Shown: in pieces, positions 1 through 12,600 of the stretch | Layout: each line of letters begins with the position of its first letter | How positions within the stretch are numbered: position 1 is the first letter of the stretch | Position numbers and translations under genes: made by a program | The notes under the pieces: model-generated | What the model was told of the DNA's origin: nothing | Databases searched by the model: none | What the model saw: only the letters and a program-made list of their open reading frames with translations | From: an uncultured Akkermansia sp. | GTDB lineage: Bacteria; Verrucomicrobiota; Verrucomicrobiia; Verrucomicrobiales; Akkermansiaceae | NCBI GenBank assembly: GCA_964448375.1 | Contig: CAYVAI010000018.1 | Span: 2,970-66,969 of the forward strand | Direction: 5' to 3' | Length of the DNA: 64,000 nt

Positions 1-2889
1 ATATTCGAAAGAACTCGCACAACGAATCTGTTGCCGGGAGGAAATCGGATCACAAATGAATCATATAATCAAATTAGCAGCAAGGATACTCTGGCTGTGT
101 CATTGGCAAAAAATAAATATGGCCGATGGGAGGTGAACACCACTAGCTACCAACAGGGAAACACCATTACAACAAATTGGCAGGAAGAGATATCCAACGC
201 ATCCCGCCAGTATAGTGTCGGCAGTGATGTTGTCTTGTCCATATATCCGGATGGCCAGATGGCCAGCAGAATACAGCAATACAGCAATAATATGTCATGC
301 ATTTCTCAAACGGATGCACGCGGCAATACATTTGTGAGTTATTATGATCCCGCCGGGCGATTGCTCTCCAGGCAGGATGCGGAAGGACGTACGACATCCT
401 ATGAATATGACCAGACTTCCGGGCGACTGGCCTGTGTAACGGATGCCATGAACGGTACAATCCATTACCAGTATAACGCGGCAGGACAAATAACGGAACA
501 ATATGGTACTGCAGTTCAGCCCATCCGCAAGGAATACGACATGAGCGGTCAGTTGATTGCTCTGACAACATGGAGAGCCCCGGGGGAAATCCTCTCGGAA
601 ATCCCATCCACAGACGGAGACACAACGCGCTGGGAGTACAACCCAACCACAGGGTTGAAAACAAAGAAAACGTATGCTGACGGGACTTCGGAAACAACGA
701 TTTATGACCGATTTCGGCGCACGAGTCGTATCATCCGGGCAGATGGCTCCCTGGAAAACTATACCTACCTGCCCATGACGGGGGAACTGGCGGAAATATC
801 CTACAGTGACCAATCGCCCTCCATTTGTCACACGTACGATTCTTCCGGCAGAGCACTCTCCGTAACAGATGCTACAGGCACATGTACTTATATCTATAAC
901 CATCTGGGGGATATCTCTGGCGAACAGTTCGAGGGTACCCTGGCGTATGTTCTGGATTACAAACAGGATTCTTACGGTAGAGATGCAGGCTATAGGCTGA
1001 CTGTCCGGGGAGAAATCGTTCAGGATACAGCCCAAACCTACGATGAATACGGCCGCCTGGCGACGGCGACACCGGAAGAAGGCAAAACCTTTACCTACCG
1101 CTATGGAGCAGGCAACCTTCTCGCAGAAATGAGCTGGCCCAATGGAATGGTGAAGGAATTCCAATACGAAGACAACAGAACTCTTGTTACCGCCCTCCTA
1201 TACAAAAGTGCGAACGATCATGAAGTTCTTTCTCATCGGTACGCCTACGATGCTCTCGGAAGATCCTCCTTGATCACGGATCATACGCCCGCGGGAGAGG
1301 AACGAAGGGTAGTCCCGTCCTATAATACGCGTAGCGAACTCATTGCCGCTACTCATGATGGAAGGGAGGATTATCTTTACTCATACGATAACATAGGAAA
1401 CCGCGTCCAATCCCGGGAATTGACTGAAAGCCGGAACTATGCCAGCAACAGGCTCAATCAATACACAAGTATCCAGGCTCATAACACCAGCAATCAATTC
1501 ATCACTGAGTTTGATGTCCGCGGCAACCAAACGCGCATCCGCACCAGTACCGGAATCTGGAGTGTCACCTACGATAGGGACAACTGTCCCGTTTTGTTTG
1601 TAAACGGCGACCATTCTGTTGCCTGCTCTTATGATTTTATGGGGAGAATGATAAAGCGTAAGGAATACCATGGAAATGTATTGACTTCAGACAAATATTT
1701 CATCTACAAAGATCATGTGCAAATAGCCGCCTATAAGCTGGATATAGAACAACAATCCGCAGATTGTTTCGTTCTTGTCAAATCCTACTATTGGGATCCG
1801 GCACAAGAGGCAGACACACGCATCCTCGCGATGAAAGACGCCTCGGACGCCTCCATGCTTTACTCCGCTTGCGATGCGATGAAAAACACAACGGCTCTCT
1901 ACGATGATTCCGGCAACTGCCGGGCTCGTTACACCTACTCTCCTTACGGTGAAAAGGTAACACAGAACGGTGACAAATGCCGTGTCAATCCCTTTGGTTT
2001 CTCATCGGAATACGACGATGCCACACTAGGCCTCTATTATTACAACTACCGTTACTTCAACGTACACGATGGCAGATGGATCAATAGAGACCCCGGATTT
2101 GATCCTAATGAGTATAATGATTATGTTTCATTTAGAAATAATCCCCATTTATTTATTGATAAGCTCGGATTAGCTTCCGCTCCTCCTGATATTGATTTCA
2201 AAACAGCAGTTTCTATTTTGAAACGCGAGGCATCAAAATCATTAATTGAATATATGCATGAATATTTAAATACTTCCAATCATACAGTTTCTCACAGCGA
2301 CTCAAGTAAGATAAATATAATAAATCGGGAATTTGGAGGTGTTGTATACAAATTAGATAAAAAAAATCATTTGTCTGAATTATATGAAGTTAAAATACAT
2401 AAAGGTGGTTTACTTAGCTATACTAGGCAAGATCCACCAATCCCGCCAAAAGGGAAGTGTGAAATTATGATATGGCACTCTCATGTTATGCGTGTACGAT
2501 TAAATTTCAATGAATCAAATAAAACAAACTATACATTTACAATGGAAGGAGATTTTGGCATTAATGGAATTTCAAGTAACGATAGAAAATCCGCTTTAGC
2601 TAAAGATAAAATATTTTTATTTTCAAACCCTGGAAAAGTCCCCATTGCAACAATACAACGGAAAACAAAACCAACCACATACCCCATTGATTTTTCTTAT
2701 AAATCAACTACAGATTATTTTGGAATGGAAAAAAAATTAAACAAAAAACTAATAGAATCAATAAAGAAAAACATCACTTCTAAGGATTTTGAAATGCTAA
2801 TAGTAGGAAGATTAAATGATTCCCCTAAGAATCGAGTTCTTTCTGTAAGAGATGAAAACTGGATTAGGTTAGCTTCTATAACTGCTTAA
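1..2889 (+). CDS. RHS/YD-repeat polymorphic toxin, C-terminal part (5' end outside window)
   Basis: Frame 1 is open from nt 1, with no stop before the TTG at 31, so the gene is truncated by the window edge. It has dense YD/RHS repeats (YDPAGRLLSRQDAEGRTTSYEYD, YQYNAAGQITEQYG, YDEYGRLATA, YAYDALGRSS, YDNIGNRVQ). The core-terminating block YYYNYRYFNVHDGRWINRDP...NNPHLFIDKLGL is followed by an unrelated AT-rich tail. Confidence 0.85.
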   Translation: MFERTRTTNLLPGGNRITNESYNQISSKDTLAVSLAKNKYGRWEVNTTSYQQGNTITTNWQEEISNASRQYSVGSDVVLSIYPDGQMASRIQQYSNNMSCISQTDARGNTFVSYYDPAGRLLSRQDAEGRTTSYEYDQTSGRLACVTDAMNGTIHYQYNAAGQITEQYGTAVQPIRKEYDMSGQLIALTTWRAPGEILSEIPSTDGDTTRWEYNPTTGLKTKKTYADGTSETTIYDRFRRTSRIIRADGSLENYTYLPMTGELAEISYSDQSPSICHTYDSSGRALSVTDATGTCTYIYNHLGDISGEQFEGTLAYVLDYKQDSYGRDAGYRLTVRGEIVQDTAQTYDEYGRLATATPEEGKTFTYRYGAGNLLAEMSWPNGMVKEFQYEDNRTLVTALLYKSANDHEVLSHRYAYDALGRSSLITDHTPAGEERRVVPSYNTRSELIAATHDGREDYLYSYDNIGNRVQSRELTESRNYASNRLNQYTSIQAHNTSNQFITEFDVRGNQTRIRTSTGIWSVTYDRDNCPVLFVNGDHSVACSYDFMGRMIKRKEYHGNVLTSDKYFIYKDHVQIAAYKLDIEQQSADCFVLVKSYYWDPAQEADTRILAMKDASDASMLYSACDAMKNTTALYDDSGNCRARYTYSPYGEKVTQNGDKCRVNPFGFSSEYDDATLGLYYYNYRYFNVHDGRWINRDPGFDPNEYNDYVSFRNNPHLFIDKLGLASAPPDIDFKTAVSILKREASKSLIEYMHEYLNTSNHTVSHSDSSKINIINREFGGVVYKLDKKNHLSELYEVKIHKGGLLSYTRQDPPIPPKGKCEIMIWHSHVMRVRLNFNESNKTNYTFTMEGDFGINGISSNDRKSALAKDKIFLFSNPGKVPIATIQRKTKPTTYPIDFSYKSTTDYFGMEKKLNKKLIESIKKNITSKDFEMLIVGRLNDSPKNRVLSVRDENWIRLASITA
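2173..2886 (+). other. Variable C-terminal (putative toxin) domain of the RHS protein
   Basis: Begins right after ...DKLGL (nt 2158-2172). There is an abrupt shift to AT-rich, Lys/Asn/Ile-rich coding (~238 aa). This position corresponds to the exchangeable toxin tip of RHS proteins. No fold recognised. Confidence 0.6.
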
Positions 2890-2906
2890 TCATATCATAA
2901 AACCTC

Positions 2907-2940
2907 TTATTCCACCTGAGATAAATCCCAGGTGGAATAA
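2907..2940 (+). terminator. Hairpin after RHS gene (possible terminator)
   Basis: Perfect 12-bp inverted repeat ttattccacctg (2907-2918) / caggtggaataa (2929-2940) with a 10-nt loop, 18 nt after the RHS stop. There is no T-tract, so terminator function is uncertain. Confidence 0.4.
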
Positions 2941-2953
2941 AAATTAATATATC

Positions 2954-4348
2954 ATGATCGTAAAATTCTACACTTTATCCGCCATCGTTTTCACATGGTG
3001 TTCGACATTACATGGAATGCAGGATCTTCCTGAGGAGGTGGATGATCCCATAGGCAAAGGACAGCTCAATGAGCTCCAAGCTCTTACACCTGCCATTTTC
3101 ATGATCGCAGACGATATCACAAAGAATGTGATCAATCCGCAAATCAGGACTCTTCATCCAGACTGTACGGGACATGAATTCATCTGGTCGGAAAAAAACA
3201 TCCAGTACGATATGGTCGGGAAATTTCCCTCTGCACGTTTTTGGGCGATGACTCCAACGCAGATATCATGGCTTCACTTACCAACATTCGAAAAATCCCC
3301 AGCTCAGGGAGATTCCTGGCAGATCTTGAACCAGCCTATCGACCCGGAATTGTATCACGGTTTTGTGAAACTCTATCAACATCTGGAACAAAACTTTTTA
3401 GTCAACAATATCGAGTATAGTCCCGACGGTTACTGTGAAATTTATGAAAGGAATTTATATGGCAACGGACATAATTCCAGCATCATCAGCGGCACTCCCA
3501 ACAAGAGGCTGGGAGTGCCTTATTCAGGTTTTATGTCCCATCAAAACCCTATTCTCTCCTACAATATGTTGGGGAAAACACTTTATGGCACGGTGGAATA
3601 CGGCAAGCTGGATGTGTATAAACAAATCTGGTTCCTCGTCCAGTGTCAGGAGTTAATGCGGAACAAGGACTTCATCCCCCTGCCCTTCCCTCCAAAGAAC
3701 AACAATGTCAGTTCACCTCACACACCTACACAACATCTCATGTTTGGCATGGAGGCGGATAAGCTCTGGAACCTTTTGCTGCCGAACTCTTTACCTTCAC
3801 CCGTGGGTGAGGTTCTCTACCGCAACATGGAAGCTATCATTGCCGTGCAGTGGAACAAACATTTCATCAACTTTGCCAGGTTCAGGTGTACTGCAACAAC
3901 CAGACTGGATGAACTCCCTATCCCGGCAGATTATGTGCACGAATTGGAAAAGAGGAAATTGAAAATCCCGACTCTGGCTGAGTACCACTTCATGCTTCTG
4001 GATATGATCGGTATCAGCCGAGGAAGCCTTCCCATGGACGATATGTGGGCCTGTTTCCTGGACTATTACCCGGCACTCCCCACGAGAAAACCCAAGGAGC
4101 ATTTTCAGAACATGGAAAAAGCTGTTTTTATACGTTTCCCTCAGAAAGGGCAATCCAACTGGGAGCATTGTTTACTAAGTACTCCCATAGTGAATATCAT
4201 CATGGAGTTTGAGTTCCAGGACGCTATACCGGATTATGTCAAGAAAGACCTCATGAAGGTAATCGATGAATATAAGAAAAACAATTCTATAGATATTTTT
4301 TTGAAGCAATTGAAAGAAGAGGAGAGACAAGCATCAAAAGAAGATTGA
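2954..4348 (+). CDS. Hypothetical secreted protein, tandem paralog A (candidate RHS immunity/accessory protein)
   Basis: 464-aa ORF from ATG 2954. The N-terminus MIVKFYTLSAIVFTWCSTLHG is signal-peptide-like. No family recognised. Coding status is supported by in-frame conservation with the adjacent paralog. Confidence 0.7.
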   Translation: MIVKFYTLSAIVFTWCSTLHGMQDLPEEVDDPIGKGQLNELQALTPAIFMIADDITKNVINPQIRTLHPDCTGHEFIWSEKNIQYDMVGKFPSARFWAMTPTQISWLHLPTFEKSPAQGDSWQILNQPIDPELYHGFVKLYQHLEQNFLVNNIEYSPDGYCEIYERNLYGNGHNSSIISGTPNKRLGVPYSGFMSHQNPILSYNMLGKTLYGTVEYGKLDVYKQIWFLVQCQELMRNKDFIPLPFPPKNNNVSSPHTPTQHLMFGMEADKLWNLLLPNSLPSPVGEVLYRNMEAIIAVQWNKHFINFARFRCTATTRLDELPIPADYVHELEKRKLKIPTLAEYHFMLLDMIGISRGSLPMDDMWACFLDYYPALPTRKPKEHFQNMEKAVFIRFPQKGQSNWEHCLLSTPIVNIIMEFEFQDAIPDYVKKDLMKVIDEYKKNNSIDIFLKQLKEEERQASKED

Positions 4349-4358
4349 CTATACAATC

Positions 4359-5756
4359 ATGATCATAAAATTCTACACTTTATCCGCCATCGTTTTCACA
4401 TGGTGTTCACCATTACATGGAATGCAGAATCTTCCTGAGGAGGCAGATGATCCCATGAGCGAAGGACTGCTCACTGAGCTCCAAGCTCGTACTCCTGCCA
4501 TTTTCATGATCGCAGACGACATCACGAAGAATGTGATCAATCCTCAAATCAGGGCTCTTCATCCAGCCTGTACGGGACATGAATTCATCTGGTCGGAAAA
4601 AAACATCCAGTACGATATGGTCGGGAAATTTCCCTCTGCACGTTTTTGGGCGATGACTCCAACGCAGATATCATGGCTTCACTTACCAACATTCGAAAAA
4701 TCCCCAGCTCAGGGAGATTCCTGGCAGATCTTGAACCAGCCTATCGACCCGGAATTGTATCACGGTTTTGTGAAACTCTATCAACATCTGGAACAAAACT
4801 TTTTAGTCAACAATATCGAGTATAGTCCCGACGGTTACTGTGAAATTTATGAAAGGAATTTATATGGCAACGGACATAATTCCAGCATCATCAGCGGCAC
4901 TCCCAACAAGAGGCTGGGAGTGCCTTATTCAGGTTTTATGTCCCATCAAAACCCTATTCTCTCCTACAATATGTTGGGGAAAACACTTTATGGCACGGTG
5001 GAATACGGCAAGCTGGATGTGTATAAACAAATCTGGTTCCTCGTCCAGTGTCAGGAGTTAATGCGGAACAAGGACTTCATCCCCCTGCCCTTCCCTCCAA
5101 AGGACAACTATGACGATTTTCTGCCTCACACACCTACACAACACCTCATGTTTGGCATGGAAGCAGATAAGCTCTGGAACCTTTTGCTGCCGAACTCTTT
5201 ACCTTCACCCGCGGGGGAGGTACTCTACCGCAGCAGGGGAGCTATCATTGCCATGCAGTGGAACAAACATTTCATCAACTTTGCCAGGTTTAACTGCACT
5301 GCAACAACCAGGCTGGATGAACTCCCTATCCCGGCAGATTATGTACACGAGTTGGAAAAGAGGAAATTGAAAGTCCCGACTCTGCCCGAGTACCATTTCA
5401 TGCTTTTGGATATGATCGGTATCAGCCGGGGAAGCTTTCCCATGGACGACATGCTTGGCTGTATCCTGGACTATTACCCGGCGCTCCCTACAAGACAGCC
5501 TAAAGATCATTTCCAGAACATGAGAGATACTGTTTTTATACGTTTCCCCCAGAAAAGAAAATCCAGTTGGGAAGAATGTTTACTAAGTACTCCCATGGAT
5601 AATATACTCAAAGAAATTGATTTCAAAGGAGATATACCAGATTTTATCAAGAGAGACCTCATAGAGCTAATCGATGAATATAAGAAAACTAATTATATAG
5701 ATACTTATTTGAAGCAATTAGAAGAAGATGAGAGGCAAGCATCAGAAGAAGATTGA
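4359..5756 (+). CDS. Hypothetical secreted protein, tandem paralog B
   Basis: 465-aa ORF from ATG 4359, starting 10 nt after the paralog A stop. It has the same architecture (MIIKFYTLSAIVFTWCSPLHG...). It aligns colinearly with A, with a one-residue length difference. Confidence 0.7.
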   Translation: MIIKFYTLSAIVFTWCSPLHGMQNLPEEADDPMSEGLLTELQARTPAIFMIADDITKNVINPQIRALHPACTGHEFIWSEKNIQYDMVGKFPSARFWAMTPTQISWLHLPTFEKSPAQGDSWQILNQPIDPELYHGFVKLYQHLEQNFLVNNIEYSPDGYCEIYERNLYGNGHNSSIISGTPNKRLGVPYSGFMSHQNPILSYNMLGKTLYGTVEYGKLDVYKQIWFLVQCQELMRNKDFIPLPFPPKDNYDDFLPHTPTQHLMFGMEADKLWNLLLPNSLPSPAGEVLYRSRGAIIAMQWNKHFINFARFNCTATTRLDELPIPADYVHELEKRKLKVPTLPEYHFMLLDMIGISRGSFPMDDMLGCILDYYPALPTRQPKDHFQNMRDTVFIRFPQKRKSSWEECLLSTPMDNILKEIDFKGDIPDFIKRDLIELIDEYKKTNYIDTYLKQLEEDERQASEED

Positions 5757-5875
5757 GTATGTCTTTGTTACTTTAATTTCCATATTATCATCTTCTTTCC
5801 TATTTTTTATTTATTCACATAAAAACAATATTTCCATTGCCGGAACAAAAATAGCTTTTATTGTGGCGACGCTTT

Positions 5876-6970
5876 CTAGAAACGATAGCGCAACTCGACC
5901 GTACCCACGCAATGCATACCCTTCTGGGTCGTGTATTCCTTCGTGGTCCACTGATATCCGAAAAAGCCCTCAAAGGACTTGTAGCGAATCCCCATACCCA
6001 GCGAAGCATTGCCCACAACCGGATATTTGGTGACATACTTTGGAAAGTCGTGAAAGACGGGACCATCGAGGAAAGCGTTGTAGGCCACGCCCTGGACCCC
6101 CAGGGAGGCGGTACCGAACACGCTCCAGTCGGAAATCGACTGATCATTCCGAACGAAGGGAGAAGTCTGGTAACTGGCTCCATTCAGGGAATACTCCGTC
6201 GCGGAATCGTTGGGCAGATTGTAACCAAAGCGATAAGCAGCGCCACCGCCACCACGGACAAAGACAGTACCTGCATCCACATTCCAGTAAGCGTAGCCAT
6301 CCGTCCCAAAGCCGGAGGCTTCTCTGTATTCCAAACCGGGAATGCGATAGTAACGCTTGAAGTAGAACTCAACAACGAGTTCGGAGGGTATCTGGTGTTC
6401 CCAGCCGGGCCATTGATCCATCTCCCAGAAATGGTGAATCGTGTACTGTGCGTCGTCAGCCAGAGACGCCTTACCAGTCACACCAAGTTGGAATTCAAGC
6501 GAGTTGGCACGATCCTCATTTTTGACCATATTGCCAAAACCGAGAGCAAGATACCCGCCATAGGGATGTTCATTGTACAAGGGACGGGAGGATTTGTTCT
6601 CGGGGGTGTACATGAGCTGGGTCAGCGTCATGGCCCACTGGCTTCTCAACGAAGACGTCCTCTCCATGCCAAAGGCCTGCCAGTCCCAGAAACTGCCCCC
6701 CGTCACCAGCGTCGTTTCCGACAAATAGGCGAAACGAATGCCATTCGTATAATTGCAATCACTGCCCACAAACAAATCGTTATCCAATTGGAGGCTGAAT
6801 GAGGCTCGTTCCTGAGGCGCAACTGCCGGGAACCCAAGGCCAGTCTGCCCAAGCGTCACTACGGATGGGGCCGAACCAGCTTGTGCCTGGGCCATCCATA
6901 TACAACCGGCAGCCAGGACACTCGTCAATAATGTCAAGCGCATGGCTATACGGACTGACACGTATGACAA
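5876..6970 (-). CDS. Outer-membrane beta-barrel protein, lipid A deacylase LpxR-family-like (DUF2219)
   Basis: Signal peptide MRLTLLTSVLAAGCIWMAQAQA. N-terminal motif LQLDNDLFVGSDCNYTNGIRFAY resembles the NDxF..D.xYTNG signature I recall for LpxR/DUF2219. The sequence is aromatic/Gly-rich with alternating strands and ends in the typical OMP terminus ...VELRYRF. Confidence 0.55.
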   Translation of the reverse strand: MSYVSVRIAMRLTLLTSVLAAGCIWMAQAQAGSAPSVVTLGQTGLGFPAVAPQERASFSLQLDNDLFVGSDCNYTNGIRFAYLSETTLVTGGSFWDWQAFGMERTSSLRSQWAMTLTQLMYTPENKSSRPLYNEHPYGGYLALGFGNMVKNEDRANSLEFQLGVTGKASLADDAQYTIHHFWEMDQWPGWEHQIPSELVVEFYFKRYYRIPGLEYREASGFGTDGYAYWNVDAGTVFVRGGGGAAYRFGYNLPNDSATEYSLNGASYQTSPFVRNDQSISDWSVFGTASLGVQGVAYNAFLDGPVFHDFPKYVTKYPVVGNASLGMGIRYKSFEGFFGYQWTTKEYTTQKGMHCVGTVELRYRF

Positions 6971-7096
6971 GGCCTTGCAAGGCTCAAAATACCCATTTCC
7001 GAGGAAAACGTGTCATTCATGATTTGGAAAATTCCCTTTTCCTTCCAGTCGAAATACCTTGGGTTTTTCCTGCAATCATCCTATTCCACCCAAGCC

Positions 7097-7924
7097 ATGC
7101 TCATCGACACCCACTGCCACCTGGCATCCCGGCAATTTGCATCTGACTCCCGCCATGACTTGATCCAAAGGGCTGCCGGAAGCGGAATCACCCACATGGT
7201 CACGCTCGGTTCTTGCCAGAAGGATTGGGAAGGGAGTGTCTCATGGGCCAAAGAATTTCCGGATGCCATCTCCGCCTGCCTTGGACTACATCCCATGGAT
7301 GTCATGGAAACTACCCCCAACTGGAAGCAGGAGCTGGAGTCTCTCCTTGCTGACATCACCCCCGCAGCTATCGGAGAAACAGGCCTCGACTACTTCTACC
7401 CCGCCCCCAAAGACAGCGACGAAGCCACATATAAAGCTCTGCAACACGAATCACTGGAATACCACTTTGAACTGGCAGCTCAGCTCGGCATCAATATCGT
7501 CCTCCACACGCGGGATCGCGAAGGGGACGCCTCATTCCACGACGCCCTTGCCATTGCCAGGCGATATGCCGGGCGAGTGCGACCCGTCTTCCACTGCTTC
7601 ATCGGCACCACCGATCATGCACGCCGGATATTCGATGAACTGGACGGCCTGATTTCCTTTACGGGAGTCGTCACCTTCAAGAATGCCGGACATCTCCCGG
7701 ACGTGGCGGCCTGGTGCCCGGCAACACGCTTCATGCTGGAGACGGATTCACCCTATCTCAGCCCCGTTCCACTACGTGGCAAAAGAAATGAACCAGCCCA
7801 TCTCTCCAAAACAGCTGAATTTATTGCCTGGATCAGACATATTTCCCTGCAACAACTCGCTGAAACAACAACAAATACGGCTCGCGAGTTCTTCGACATA
7901 ACTGGATTGAAAAAAAAGTCATAA
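7097..7924 (+). CDS. TatD-family metal-dependent hydrolase (DNase)
   Basis: MLIDTHCHL... start motif (HxH), IGETGLDYFY, and the NIVLHTRD, FHCF and ETDSPYL blocks typical of the TatD/YcfH family. The ORF is open from 7010, but the ATG at 7097 gives the canonical N-terminus. Confidence 0.85.
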   Translation: MLIDTHCHLASRQFASDSRHDLIQRAAGSGITHMVTLGSCQKDWEGSVSWAKEFPDAISACLGLHPMDVMETTPNWKQELESLLADITPAAIGETGLDYFYPAPKDSDEATYKALQHESLEYHFELAAQLGINIVLHTRDREGDASFHDALAIARRYAGRVRPVFHCFIGTTDHARRIFDELDGLISFTGVVTFKNAGHLPDVAAWCPATRFMLETDSPYLSPVPLRGKRNEPAHLSKTAEFIAWIRHISLQQLAETTTNTAREFFDITGLKKKS

Positions 7925-7964
7925 AAACGCGTTCGCGCCTTGAATTGCCCCCCATCAATCTGAT

Positions 7965-8465
7965 ATGCAACTTGTCAGCATGAAAGCGCAGTTCATATTT
8001 CCGGCATTTTGCGCGGCTATTGCCGTGACATTCTCCTCTTGTACCCACCAAAACAGCGGCAATCCCGACGAACCCGAATTGGCAGATCCCATCGCCAGCG
8101 GCACCATTCCTCCGTGGATCGCTGAAAATGCCGATTCCTACGAAACAGGCGTTTATGACAGTGGTTCCAAGACTCCCAGCAACTACGCCTACAATCCTCC
8201 GGCCAAGCCCAAGGTAAGCGGCAGTTCTTCCAGCTCATCCAGCGCCAGAAAGTCCACGGCCAGGACGAGCACGAAGCCCAGCTCCAGCAAATCTACCAAG
8301 TCCACCAGGAAGTCCTCCTCCACAACCTACACGGTCAAGAAGGGCGATACCTTGGGAGCCATTGCCAAGCGCAACGGTACCACCGTTAGTGCCATCAAGA
8401 AAGCAAACGGACTCAAGTCCGACTTGATCGGCATCAATCAGAAGTTGTCCATCCCCCGCAAGTAA
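7965..8465 (+). CDS. LysM-domain lipoprotein
   Basis: Signal peptide with lipobox-like FSSC. Ser/Lys-rich linker (SGSSSSSSSARKSTARTSTKPSSSKSTKSTRKSSS). C-terminal LysM motif YTVKKGDTLGAIAKRNGTTVSAIKKANGLKSDLIGINQKLSIP. Confidence 0.85.
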   Translation: MQLVSMKAQFIFPAFCAAIAVTFSSCTHQNSGNPDEPELADPIASGTIPPWIAENADSYETGVYDSGSKTPSNYAYNPPAKPKVSGSSSSSSSARKSTARTSTKPSSSKSTKSTRKSSSTTYTVKKGDTLGAIAKRNGTTVSAIKKANGLKSDLIGINQKLSIPRK

Positions 8466-8486
8466 TTGCCGAGGGATTCCCACACC

Positions 8487-9218
8487 ATGACAACTACATT
8501 CTACCGTCTGTTGCCAATTCTCGGGTTTTCACTGTTGGCTTCCTGTTCTTCTCTACATGAGGAAGAACAGGTTGCCGAAGTGGCTCCTCGGCAACTCCAC
8601 AAGCAGGATCCGGCCTACGTCAATCCATTCCCCAAATCGAGCTATGCTCATTTTGTGGCAAGCAAGGATTACCCGGTCACATTCGGCACCTATCTCGACA
8701 AAACGCTTCTGAATACATCGGGCAACCAGCAAAAGAAGATTCACATCTGCCTTAAGGAACAGCGCGGCAGACTCTATGTCGGGAATAAAGTTGCCATCGA
8801 CTTCCCAACATCCACTGGCGTCAGCGACTACCCGACCAAGCCGGGCAGTTACAAGGTGATCTCCAAGGAAGTCGACCACACATCCAACTTGTACGGTAAA
8901 ATGTACGATGCAGAAGGCAAGTGCATCGACTCCAACGCCAATGCGACTGACGCAGTGCCGGAAGGCGGTAAATTCGTCGGTTCTCCGATGCCTTACTGGC
9001 AACGCCTGACGGGTGCCGGCCTTGGCCTCCATGTGGGCAATGTCCGCAGGCGTCCCGTTTCGCACGGATGTATCCGTCTGCAACCCGAAACAGCCAAAAC
9101 GCTGTACAAGGAGACCAAAATCGGCACTCCCGTCTTCATCCAGCAGGATGTCGAAAAGGATGCCCTTGATTATAAGGCTCCCATTGCCCAAAACATCAAG
9201 CAGCTCACTGCTGAATAG
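8487..9218 (+). CDS. L,D-transpeptidase (YkuD domain) lipoprotein
   Basis: Lipobox LLASCSS. YkuD catalytic block GLHVGNVRRRPVSHGCIRLQPETAKTLY (the H...SHGCIR motif). The ORF is open from the TTG at 8466; the ATG at 8487 is preferred. Confidence 0.85.
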   Translation: MTTTFYRLLPILGFSLLASCSSLHEEEQVAEVAPRQLHKQDPAYVNPFPKSSYAHFVASKDYPVTFGTYLDKTLLNTSGNQQKKIHICLKEQRGRLYVGNKVAIDFPTSTGVSDYPTKPGSYKVISKEVDHTSNLYGKMYDAEGKCIDSNANATDAVPEGGKFVGSPMPYWQRLTGAGLGLHVGNVRRRPVSHGCIRLQPETAKTLYKETKIGTPVFIQQDVEKDALDYKAPIAQNIKQLTAE

Positions 9219-9240
9219 GCAATTACACATCAACTCCAGA

Positions 9241-9278
9241 AAAGGCCTCGGGGACACTTCTTCCCGAGGCCTTTTTAC
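9241..9278 (+). terminator. Rho-independent terminator after the L,D-transpeptidase gene
   Basis: Perfect 12-bp stem aaaggcctcggg (9241-9252) / cccgaggccttt (9263-9274), followed by further T residues. Confidence 0.8.
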
Positions 9279-9384
9279 GTCCTGTACCTCATCCAAATTC
9301 GGACAATTCACTCCTGCGGACATGGACGATAATTCCCGCATTTTTAAAGTTGTAACGACCTGTAAATCCGTTACCATGCCGTTT

Positions 9385-9515
9385 CATCTCTGGGAAGTCC
9401 GTCGCACGGACAGGAAATAGATGGGGAATCCGGTGTAAATCCGGAGCGGTACCGCCACTGTATGTGGGTTCCATGCCAAGGAATTCATGAAGCCAGATCG
9501 CCAGCCTGAGACTTA
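9385..9515 (+). promoter_or_regulatory. Cobalamin (B12) riboswitch candidate
   Basis: aatagatGGGGAAtccGGTGtAAAtCCggaGCggtaCCGCCACTGTatgtggg (9416-9467) matches the conserved cobalamin core (AGGGAA..GGTG.AA..CC..GC.G..CCGC.ACTGT; compare E. coli btuB AAUAGGGAAUCCAGUGCGAAUCUGGAGC). It is preceded by the hairpin gtccgt-cgc-acggac (9397-9411). A B12-box-like AGCCAGATCGCCAGCC lies at 9491-9506 (consensus AGCCnGnAGACCTGCC). Exact boundaries are uncertain. Confidence 0.75.
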
Positions 9516-9674
9516 TTACTAACTGCCGGCGGGTTTTCCGGCTGTCTAGACCAAACCATGAATTACATTACAGCGCTTCACTTGTTTGAAGCCCATCATG
9601 ACGGGTTGCCTTCCCTGAACGGCAACGACGCATCTTCGTACCCTTGCGGAAACGAACTGGCCTGTACCCTCGGG

Positions 9675-12600
9675 ATGCCCAAGCCTTCCCGCGGCAGAGC
9701 CAGAAACATCCTCTGCGGACTCGCCTTGTCCCTTGCCGCTTCCGGCATGGTCATGGCAGCCCATGCAGAAGACCTCACCTCCCCGAAAGTGGTTGATGGA
9801 GCAGGAAGCTATTCCTCTCCCATAACCGCTTACGGATATACTCAGCCCATCGGCTCCATCAACACGATCATTTCGGCAACATCATCCGCACATTATGCCT
9901 ATGGGATCAGCGCCACCAGTGCCATCAGCATTGATACCATCACATCCGGTGCGTCAATCAGTGCTTCGACATCCGGGAACTATGCTTATGCCATCGCGAC
10001 AACCACGGGCGGCATCTCCATCCGGGATTCGATAGCCGGTGCCATCACCGCAAGCGTCAACATCGAAACTGCTGGAGCATCCGCTTACGGCTACGGAATT
10101 TACGCCAAATCCGGAGACATCGCCTTGGGAGGAATCCAGGCTGGAGGACAAATCATCGTCGCCACTCCCAAGTCAGAAAAAGCGGGCCGCCTCTACGGAA
10201 TCTCGACCGAAAACGGGAGTATTAGCATAACCGGAGCCATCGATGGCAACATCAAGGTTCTGGGGCATGGTACAACAGTTTACGGACTCTGGGCCAAAAC
10301 GGGAGACATTACACTCGAGTCCATTGGAAGCACGGGCAACATTGACGTCACGGGCAATTTTTCCTCGTACGGCATGTATGCCAAAACAGGGCTCACTATC
10401 AGGAATGCCATTGCCGGCGATATTTCCGTCACATCGGAAACCGGCAATGTCGCCTATGCCCTCACGGCTTATAGCAACGATGCCACCATCCGTAGTAACC
10501 TGGTCATCGGCTCCATTGGCTCGACATCACACATCACTGCCAAAACAGGGGGATTCGAAGCCTGTGCCTTGAGCGCTCCCTATGGTGTCCTGGTGTTGGG
10601 CGATATCACCGTTGGAGAAATGCCTGGCATCATCACCGTCAACAAACTGGGCAACATGGACGGCCACATCTCCGTGCAGTCCCAAAGCACGGATACATCC
10701 AAGCGCTTTTCCGCCGTCGGTCTTGCTTCCCAGTGGGGCATCATCACCGGAGATTTCGGGGAAGGCTCCAGCCTGACTGTTGAAAGTGCCGGAGCAGATG
10801 CCTTTGCCTTCTTCACGGGCAAGGATGGAGGCTCCATGGCTGTCAATACCAGCGCAACATTGGAAATTGGAGGCATCCATGGCGACATTTCCGTATCGGC
10901 AGCTTCTGGAATTGCCGGAGCCGTGTACTCCGAAGGCAGAGTAACCATGGGAGAGCTCGGAACCAAGGGTTCCATCACAGCAAGTTCTACTGGTAATGCC
11001 GCCGCCTATGCCATCTATTCTCATGGTGGTCTTACGACAGGAAAACTGGACGGAACGGTTCGGGCCACAACAGCCGGGAATTACTCCTTTGCCATCATGG
11101 GACTCGGAGTCACGACGGAAATTGGCGAACACGCTCAGGTTTCGGCAACAGGAGCATCAGGTTCCGATAAGGTTTACGCCCTGTTCAGTGGATGTTACCA
11201 ACAAAGCTACGCATCGTCGGGCACTGTAACAGACGCCGCCAGCAGACAACTGACAATCTATAACCTGGCTGATACACTGACTCTCCATGCCGGGGCACAA
11301 ATCGACGGCATTGTTGAACTGGGTGGCTCTGGCGATGGACAGGATGTCATCAATCTCCTGAGCGGCACTGCCGATTCCAAGGGAGTTTTCGACTACGATA
11401 TCCGCACAACCATCAACATGGATGACAACCGGGGAGATAAGGTTTCCTTCGTTCGGATGGCTATCGGAACAGACAAAGCCTCGGCCCACTGGAACATCAC
11501 CGGGCAAAATGCTCTGGTCAATGAATTGAACATCGGCGTCGGCTCCTCTCTGAGCTCTACCGATCTGTCATTCCTGCGCGAAGGCGCGAGCATCATCAAC
11601 CAGGGAACCATCAGCAGTACAGGAACGATCCATGTGGGAGCCGAACAAACGCTAATCACAGGGACCCTGACGCTCAATGGCAACACCCTGACTCCTGTTT
11701 CCACCGGGCTAAGCAACGGCATCACCGTAACAGCCAGTGACGGAGCCAAGCTGGGCACCACCATTGCGAATGCGGGGTCCACCACATGGTACATCAATGC
11801 CGAACAAATTTTCGATGGACAGAAAGCCTTGTTCAGCCAGTTGATCAGTGGATTCAATGCCGACGATTACACACTCTCCTACCTGCTTTCCGGCAAGATC
11901 CTTGTTGGTGCCGACAAGCCGGTGGAAATCCCCGACGGATCCAACGTCCAGATTGGGGAAGGCTCTACAATCATCGTCGATTCGATCAAGGAAGATGCTT
12001 CCTTGACGCTTTCGGGCGGAACGGCGAATTTGTCTCAGTCAACCATGACGATCGTTACTTCCAGCCAGATAAATGGCGCAAGCGGCAAGCTCATCATGAG
12101 CGGAGAACAGGAGATGGTCTGGAATGCCGCCGTCACTGCCGGGTACAGCATCTCCGGCACCGATAGCTCTACTCCTGCCGGTAAATTGACAGTCAAGGCC
12201 GGCAACGGCACAGTCAAGGCAACAGGGAGCTACATCGTCAAGGAAGCCGTCATCGATCAATCGACACTGGAACTGGCAGGTAAAGATGCCGTGCTGGGTA
12301 CCCAGGGCGGCACCGTAAACGTCGGTGCCGAATCCCCTGCCGAACTCGTCCTGCGCGATGCTACAGTGCAAGGTGAATTGACCGTCCATGAAGACAGCCA
12401 GCTGAAAGGAAGCGGCACGTTTACTGACAGTGTGACCCTGGTGCAAGCTGGACTCTATGTTGGCAACAGCCCCGGCTACCAGAATTACCGGAACGGACTT
12501 TCCATTGACGGAGGCTCCGTAAGCTTCTGCATCGATGGAACGACGCGTGCGACGGCAGACAATAAGGGAAGCGGTACCTATTCCGCCATGGATATCCAGG

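Follow-up and report, generated by a model that had tools for sequence, protein, structure and literature searches.

A candidate exported immunity gene, tandemly duplicated behind a JAB-like RHS toxin tip in Akkermansia, whose identical core may be mostly an assembly merge

Introduction

Rhs-CT/RhsI pairs reportedly form toxin-immunity modules, of which orphan cassettes are also said to occur (Koskiniemi et al., 2013). Here we analyse a locus in a 64,000-nucleotide (nt) stretch of DNA from an uncultured Akkermansia sp. (contig CAYVAI010000018.1; the whole stretch is called the window below), in which an RHS gene with a candidate toxin tip at its C-terminus is followed by two tandem paralogous genes, par1 and par2. 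Polymorphic toxin modules with homogeneous polyimmunity loci, which contain tandem immunity paralogs, have been described (Zhang et al., 2012, PMC3482391). The Tox-JAB-2 domain, which overlaps the Pfam family DUF4329 (PF14220), has the signature 'E, H[ST]H, S, D', and the Tox-JAB domains were proposed to be nucleases (Zhang et al., 2012, PMC3482391). The immunity protein of Tox-JAB-2 is Imm-NTF2-2, and that of Tox-JAB-1 is Imm65, a lipoprotein with a signal-peptide/lipobox (Zhang et al., 2012, PMC3482391). In the type VI secretion system of Vibrio cholerae, arrays of immunity genes have formed by effector displacement and contain acquired orphan immunity genes (PMC5361080). In the gut, Akkermansia strains show mutual exclusion, and RHS proteins have been proposed, though not demonstrated, to be the weapons (PMC11923206).

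Judged by its sequence, the locus in the window is a Rhs-CT/RhsI-type module with a duplicated immunity gene, a kind of locus that is already known. The RHS shell closes with the core motif and gives way to a compositionally foreign tip, and a partner gene follows at once on the same strand. Between species the tip varies together with its partner, relatives contain orphan partners and decayed tips, and the partner is tandem-duplicated. It differs from the known modules in its partner, which at ~465 amino acids (aa) is several times the usual size, is predicted to be exported and fits none of the described immunity families. The tip resembles Tox-JAB-2 in carrying E, H[ST]H, S and D in the same order on the C-terminus of an RHS protein, and the partner resembles Imm65, the partner of Tox-JAB-1, in that it too carries a predicted export signal. 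Unlike in Tox-JAB-2, the spacing from HSH to SxxD in the tip is ~29 residues and an extra C-terminal region of ~90 aa is present. The par partner is also unrelated to the 126-127-aa partners of the canonical tips and has no Pfam match, NTF2-like families included. As in the V. cholerae arrays, extra copies of the putative immunity gene lie beside the presumed active pair and orphans persist in toxin-less strains; however, the par copies are close paralogs (87%) that form a mosaic of identical and diverged segments, not successive unrelated cassettes.

On balance, we favor the interpretation that par1 and par2 are a tandem-duplicated immunity gene of the JAB-like tip, that they encode an exported partner, and that the 535-nt core shared by the two copies in the assembly is mostly the product of an assembly merge.

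Results

Two haplotypes within the identical core of the paralogs

The initial annotation of the window described two full-length tandem genes with a 1405-nt period, and both open reading frames (ORFs) are present as described (Table 1). The period is 1405 nt up to a 3-nt indel near 3700-3715 and 1408 nt beyond it. The par2 gene starts 10 nt past the par1 stop, and the duplication unit is approximately the ORF itself, with homology from 5 nt before the ATG to ~4 nt past the stop. In the assembly, nt 3163-3697 equal nt 4568-5102 exactly (535 nt). The matching out-of-frame ORFs that had been cited in support of this identity are found at 3435-3656 and 4840-5061 (73 aa each), and all of the peptide differences quoted between the two copies are present as well. 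On either side of the block the copies diverge, at 18 of 209 nt (2954-3162) and at 85 of 630 nt (3716-4345). Because of this divergence, an identical run of 535 bases, or even of 264, is far beyond chance (about 0.91^264 = 1e-11). The synonymous divergence (dS) between par1 and par2 is 0.15 in codons 1-70, 0 in the assembled identical block, 0.29 in codons 249-360 and 0.53 in codons 361-464. The ratio of non-synonymous to synonymous divergence (dN/dS) in the flanks is 0.22-0.53, and both copies are under purifying selection. The flanks do diverge at both ends, as had been noted, but positive selection as the cause was ruled out, dN/dS being 0.2-0.5.

Four public gut-metagenome runs carry parts of the stretch, and two of them, X1 and X2, contain 0.91 and 0.90 of its words. 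The runs were analyzed as unphased, independently built contigs with their depths, aligned to one copy only. Contigs from X1 and X2 show no difference from the window over 2000-2990, 2974-3192, 3907-4395, 4379-4597 and 5315-6000. Since they match the window exactly outside the block, X1 and X2 carry the same strain as the window. Single-copy depth is ~24 in X1 and ~33 in X2. The par1-par2 junction is crossed by one 489-nt contig in each of the two runs, and therefore the tandem duplication is real.

Within the block, the contigs of both runs split the 535-nt identity into parts (Table 1). Its first part is covered by a single shared contig at double depth. Further downstream two versions are found, version A, which equals the window, and version B; their depths add up to the double depth in both X1 and X2. 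Over 3427-3555, version B differs from the window by 14 substitutions and an in-frame 3-nt deletion. It stays in frame, with ~10 non-synonymous and 4 synonymous changes, and dS between versions A and B is 0.12. Version B looks like a working allele and not an error. The possibility that it forms a separate contig of the assembly was ruled out, as it is absent from all 45 contigs. In the contig over 3556-3697, CAT replaces TTC at 3632-3634 (F227H) in X1, in X2 and in X3, a third strain of low depth; the X2 contig has further differences at 3588, 3592 and 3595. The 535-nt identity read from the window is therefore true of the assembly, but perfect identity between the copies is verified for 264 nt only (3163-3426).

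The most likely explanation is that the perfect 535-nt identity is a popped assembly bubble and that only 3163-3426 is truly identical. One copy would carry version A and the other version B; during assembly the bubble that separates the shared nodes would have been collapsed and the simple loop followed a single time. Bubble popping together with a single pass through the loop gives exactly a 535-nt 'perfect' block with these borders. The merge of the two haplotypes, one per copy, would cover 3427-3634. Which copy carries which haplotype we can only infer.

Several observations weigh against this explanation. Depth cannot tell a split of A and B between the copies from a mixture of AA and BB substrains at about 1:1, which fits the depths as well as AB genomes do, and the A:B ratio is unequal between the runs (27.5:28.3 in X1 vs 26.3:43 in X2). 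In X3, version A and the par2-type 5' flank lie on one 409-nt contig, the same arrangement as in the window. Another X3 contig is a mosaic, par2-like at 3698-3757 and par1-like beyond, and because of such mosaic contigs it is clear that recombinant par alleles exist in the population. These data could be accommodated if the 535-nt identity were real and represented a very recent gene-conversion tract, with the second haplotype contributed by a co-resident substrain or a part of the population. We consider this unlikely. It needs two substrains that are identical across the other 3.4 kb and differ at 20 sites or more inside the repeat alone, and it needs them at near-equal abundance in two samples. 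Moreover, bulge removal between two shared nodes and one loop pass in a de Bruijn assembler would leave a block with just these borders, 3163 and 3697. The TTC of the window at 3632-3634 is missing from the contigs of all three runs, which is expected if the assemblers kept different branches.

An assembly collapse had been named at the outset as what would undo the proposed central conversion. It is borne out in part, in that the contigs contain two haplotypes, whereas both copies do exist. The two haplotypes weaken the 535-nt evidence for recent conversion in the center, but the 264-nt tract and the dS gradient indicate partial homogenization or recombination. Taken together, the tandem copies, the 264-nt identical tract and the gradient point to a duplication whose 3' end is old (dS about 0.5) and which was homogenized in part, piecemeal from the 5' side, by recombination or conversion.

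X3 was also compared over 2296-3600 of the window. It has mosaic par-like contigs and none for the tip region, which at a depth of ~3.5x is weak evidence of absence. X3 may have the partner without this toxin tip.

The toxin tip

The tip at 2170-2889 is probably a divergent Tox-JAB-2/DUF4329-like domain. It would work like Tox-JAB-2 and is probably related to it, and we do not treat it as a certified member. Relatives with 26-32% identity are found in the Akkermansia genomes G035, G067 and G068 and in ~10 loci from metagenomes or metagenome-assembled genomes. E-x-G-G, C-E-x3-W-H-S-H and E-G-x-F-G...S-x-x-D are invariant across the two tip lineages, and the first of these motifs reads E-F-G-G in the window's tip. 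These motifs include E70, H119-S120-H121, S151 and D154 (numbered after the first row of the alignment), and the tip has the Tox-JAB-2 residue set E, H[ST]H, S, D in order. An hhalign comparison of the tip alignment with four genuine Akkermansia DUF4329 RHS tips, both alignments being very shallow, gave a probability of 83% and an E-value of 8.6e-6 over 62 columns. The match region is the core from E-x-G-G to W-H-[ST]-H. Across the complete G035 and G068 genomes, searched in six frames, no sequence matched the DUF4329 model better than the G035-type tip.

Two results weigh against this assignment. The hidden Markov model of DUF4329 scores only 14-16 bits on the relatives' tips (15-16 bits, E about 0.02, on the G035-type tip), below the gathering score of 28.6, and it does not match the window's own tip. 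A search for full-length RHS proteins with the same tip as the window returned none, a PDB sequence-profile search with the tip returned nothing, and a literature search found no experimental study of a JAB-like tip.

Linkage of tip and partner

In G035, G067, G068 and the ~10 further loci, each related tip is followed by a 487-aa protein that overlaps it by 62 nt and is 24% identical to par1. The tip is present in 4 of 154 Akkermansia species genomes (G000, G035, G067 and G068), and the partner is adjacent in 4 of 4. In the loci L011, L013 and L018 and in G067 (L032), frameshifts or a stop codon disrupt the tip. The partner there is an intact 487-aa ORF, and the intact partners beside broken tips are 97-99% identical to the others. 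In G028 (L006/L010), a 43%-identical 482-aa par copy lies behind an RHS-core remnant without a tip and is an orphan. Co-variation with the tip, survival after decay of the toxin and orphan copies are hallmarks of immunity genes, and they are the reason for assigning an immunity-type role to the par genes. The initial annotation suggested that the par genes travel with the toxin as immunity-type partners, and this agrees with the adjacency in four species, a partner that outlives the tip and the orphan in a fifth species. The par proteins would bind and block the tip, shielding the producer and its kin, with the second copy as a spare whose specificity loops are altered.

The orphan in L006 (G028:C1:641000-659000) is one of several genes for exported or membrane-anchored proteins that follow an RHS gene as an array, at 3100-12600 of that locus. 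The array includes two 199-aa copies (93% identical), a paralog pair of 360 aa and 347 aa (33% identical) and the 482-aa par homolog, and short RHS-core remnants directly precede the genes of 347 aa and 482 aa. Its makeup resembles that of a poly-immunity or orphan array. The 2.9-kb locus L009 (URHS01000091.1), filed under 'uncultured Blautia sp.', contains a tip and partner that are 99.6-99.8% identical at the protein level to those of Akkermansia, and is probably a binning contaminant.

The par family

Six-frame searches found the par family in 9 of 154 Akkermansia species genomes. Its lineages are the window type, G028 (43% identity), G035/G067/G068 (24%), G103 and G096/G007/G098 (~20%), and colinear motifs, including VYxQ[LI]W and LWN, extend to the distant members. 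The initial annotation recognized no family, and our searches of Pfam, NCBIfam and PDB and with Foldseek agree. Both paralogs and three distant members matched no Pfam or NCBIfam family at E <= 1, NTF2-like families included. A word-indexed search of 5.8 billion proteins with par1 returned the window's two proteins, to which the family profile added one 487-aa cluster (P0004). A full phmmer scan of 1.84 billion cluster representatives returned par2 and one 478-aa G028-type protein only, and a PDB sequence-profile search with the family gave nothing meaningful.

Structure prediction with AlphaFold2 from a single sequence was unusable, with a predicted local distance difference test score (pLDDT) of 34. 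With a 7-row family alignment the pLDDT was 56 and the predicted template-modeling (TM) score, pTM, was 0.61. A Foldseek search of this model against the PDB gave no fold match (best E 0.3, TM < 0.2), and its sliding-clamp matches are noise. The segments that vary between par1 and par2 (aa 22-45, 249-254 and 395-464) and the patch that differs between versions A and B (aa 158-201) fall largely in low-confidence parts of the model. The variable segments are likely surface loops, which may determine specificity. As far as these comparisons reach, the par family is new, being large, predicted to be exported and Akkermansia-restricted, and its pairing with a divergent JAB-like tip appears to be new as well.

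The immunity assignment has points against it. It draws on no more than two independent lineages of tip and partner (window type and G035 type), and no RHS gene adjoins the distant members in G096/G007/G098 and G103. The position of these distant members would suit a different role, as would the lack of any matching immunity family or fold and the size of par1, which at 464 aa is indeed unusually large as first noted, several times a typical RhsI and also the 126-127-aa partners of canonical Akkermansia DUF4329 tips. The par proteins could have an accessory or surface function after export, for example as a helper in toxin release or targeting, or could be a family whose genes by chance lie in RHS recombination hot spots, with immunity encoded elsewhere or unneeded. 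We find such a role quite unlikely, since every genome with the homologous tip has a par-type partner right behind it. An intact partner beside decayed tips and an orphan behind an RHS remnant point to selection for protection, not for help to a toxin that is no longer made. Furthermore, between the RHS stop (2889) and lpxR (5876) there is no candidate immunity ORF besides par1 and par2; lpxR closes the locus, and thus no other candidate partner gene is available. Immunity therefore stays the role that we favor for the par genes.

One of the distant members, a 510-aa protein (L031 6933-8465 in G096, also present in G007 and G098), adjoins genes for a DUF5009 protein and a DegT-aminotransferase. 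The same DUF5009/DegT genes flank the end of the G035 RHS array, and no RHS gene is near in G096. The G096-type member may be a relic orphan or may represent the ancestral non-RHS context of the par family.

Predicted export of the partners

The N-terminal segment is hydrophobic in each of the six par-family lineages, with Kyte-Doolittle (KD) maxima of 1.7-3.2. The signal-peptide-like N-termini noted for par1 and par2 are found in all members of the family. The par proteins would be Sec-exported and act in the periplasm or envelope. Against this, the N-terminal segment of par1 and par2 is moderately hydrophobic (KD 1.7, compared with 2.5-3.2 in the other lineages), and one gene caller starts par2 at M22 (444 aa), which leaves no signal peptide. 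That par1 and par2 are cytoplasmic immunity proteins translated from Met22, with the hydrophobic stretch untranslated and a cytoplasmic toxin such as a nuclease, would suit the 444-aa database call for par2, the weak segment and the nuclease activity proposed for Tox-JAB domains (Zhang et al., 2012), but it is highly improbable given that the hydrophobic segment is followed by an acidic or Ser-rich linker in every lineage, that conservation between par1 and par2 extends over codons 1-21 and the unit of duplication begins only 5 nt before M1, and that the canonical DUF4329-tip partners in the genus are clearly exported.

Those canonical partners were found behind the genuine DUF4329 tips L037:1903-2286, L038:1902-2285 and L039:1854-2234, each of which is followed by a 126-127-aa protein. 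These proteins have clear signal or lipobox N-termini and match no Pfam family. They look like an undescribed family of small exported immunity proteins for JAB-type tips. The possibility that the par proteins contain this small domain was ruled out (hhalign probability 0.1%). The 126-127-aa partners with their clear export signals, the lipoprotein nature of Imm65 and the predicted export signals of the par proteins together suggest that the periplasm or envelope is where JAB-type RHS tips are countered in this genus. The N-terminus of the complete RHS homolog in G035 has long poly-Ser linkers and no visible signal peptide. A Sec signal on the RHS protein as the explanation for periplasmic immunity thus has no support from this complete homolog.

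Layout of the locus

The RHS gene extends upstream of the window to the edge of the contig (C18:3-5858, at least 1951 aa). At the contig edge (G000:C18:3-80) its frame is a poly-Gly run, where the N-terminus of the window RHS protein is lost; this run is probably the cause of the assembly break. The 3' end of the shell consists of the RHS-associated core and an ...IDKLGL motif. The NCBIfam model Rhs_assc_core matches aa 646-724 of the part in the window with 52 bits, compared with a cut-off of 32.5. In the G+C profile, G+C falls from ~50% to 30% where the tip begins.

The spacer between the RHS gene and par1 is 64 nt long and contains a strong hairpin that occurs once in the genome, with none before par2. 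As it is unique, a dispersed repeat was ruled out. Since an A-rich run follows the stem on the + strand, the hairpin does not resemble a terminator there. One possible role is in the processing or stability of the mRNA, which would keep the expression of toxin and immunity apart.

Table 1. Features of the RHS-par locus and metagenome contigs across the par repeat (window coordinates; depths in runs X1 and X2)
Feature	Position	Strand	Remarks	Depth X1	Depth X2
RHS/YD-repeat shell	1..2169	+	Pfam RHS_repeat E 1e-20; NCBIfam YD_repeat_2x match		
RHS C-terminal toxin tip	2170..2889	+	239 aa, ~30% G+C		
Hairpin in RHS-par1 spacer	2904..2943	+	12+2 bp stem as folded, -18.8 kcal/mol		
par1	2954..4348	+	464 aa; signal-peptide-like N-terminus MIVKFYTLSAIVFTWCSTLHG; candidate immunity protein		
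par2	4359..5756	+	465 aa; 87% identical to par1 (protein)		
Convergent lpxR, outer-membrane LpxR family	5876-6970	-	Pfam LpxR E 8.5e-73; directly after par2		
Remainder of assembled identical block	3427..3697 (= 4832-5102)	+	second haplotype in contigs		
Two copy-specific contigs	3100-3192			20.5 and 27.5	27.4 and 39.4
One shared contig	3163-3426 (= 4568-4831)		double depth	47.9	68.8
Version A	3397-3585		equals window	27.5	26.3
Version B	3397-3585			28.3	43
One contig	3556-3697			32.1	41.1
Two copy-specific contigs	3668-3780			29.1 and 12.7	28.7 and 27

Discussion

Our analysis has a practical implication for short-read assemblies. A 'perfectly identical core' of tandem paralogs can arise in them by bubble popping, and the reads should be checked before gene conversion is inferred.

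A more far-reaching proposal, which we offer as a speculation with a low chance of being right, is that the periplasm or envelope is the site of action of JAB/DUF4329-type RHS tips, where they might be isopeptidases of cell-wall or lipoprotein linkages and not nucleases, as had been predicted in 2012. The par proteins would then be a new class of large, two-module periplasmic immunity proteins, whose variable, poorly ordered loops (aa 22-45, 158-201, 249-254 and 395-464) are reshuffled between the copies by segmental gene conversion. If this is true, such reshuffling between tandem par copies would widen the range of toxin alleles that are resisted.

The locus is a concrete and testable toxin-antidote candidate, which combines a JAB-like tip with an undescribed, unusually large partner that is predicted to be exported. 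The comparison is further evidence that Akkermansia counters JAB-type RHS toxins outside the cytoplasm, as the partners of the canonical DUF4329 tips appear to be exported too.

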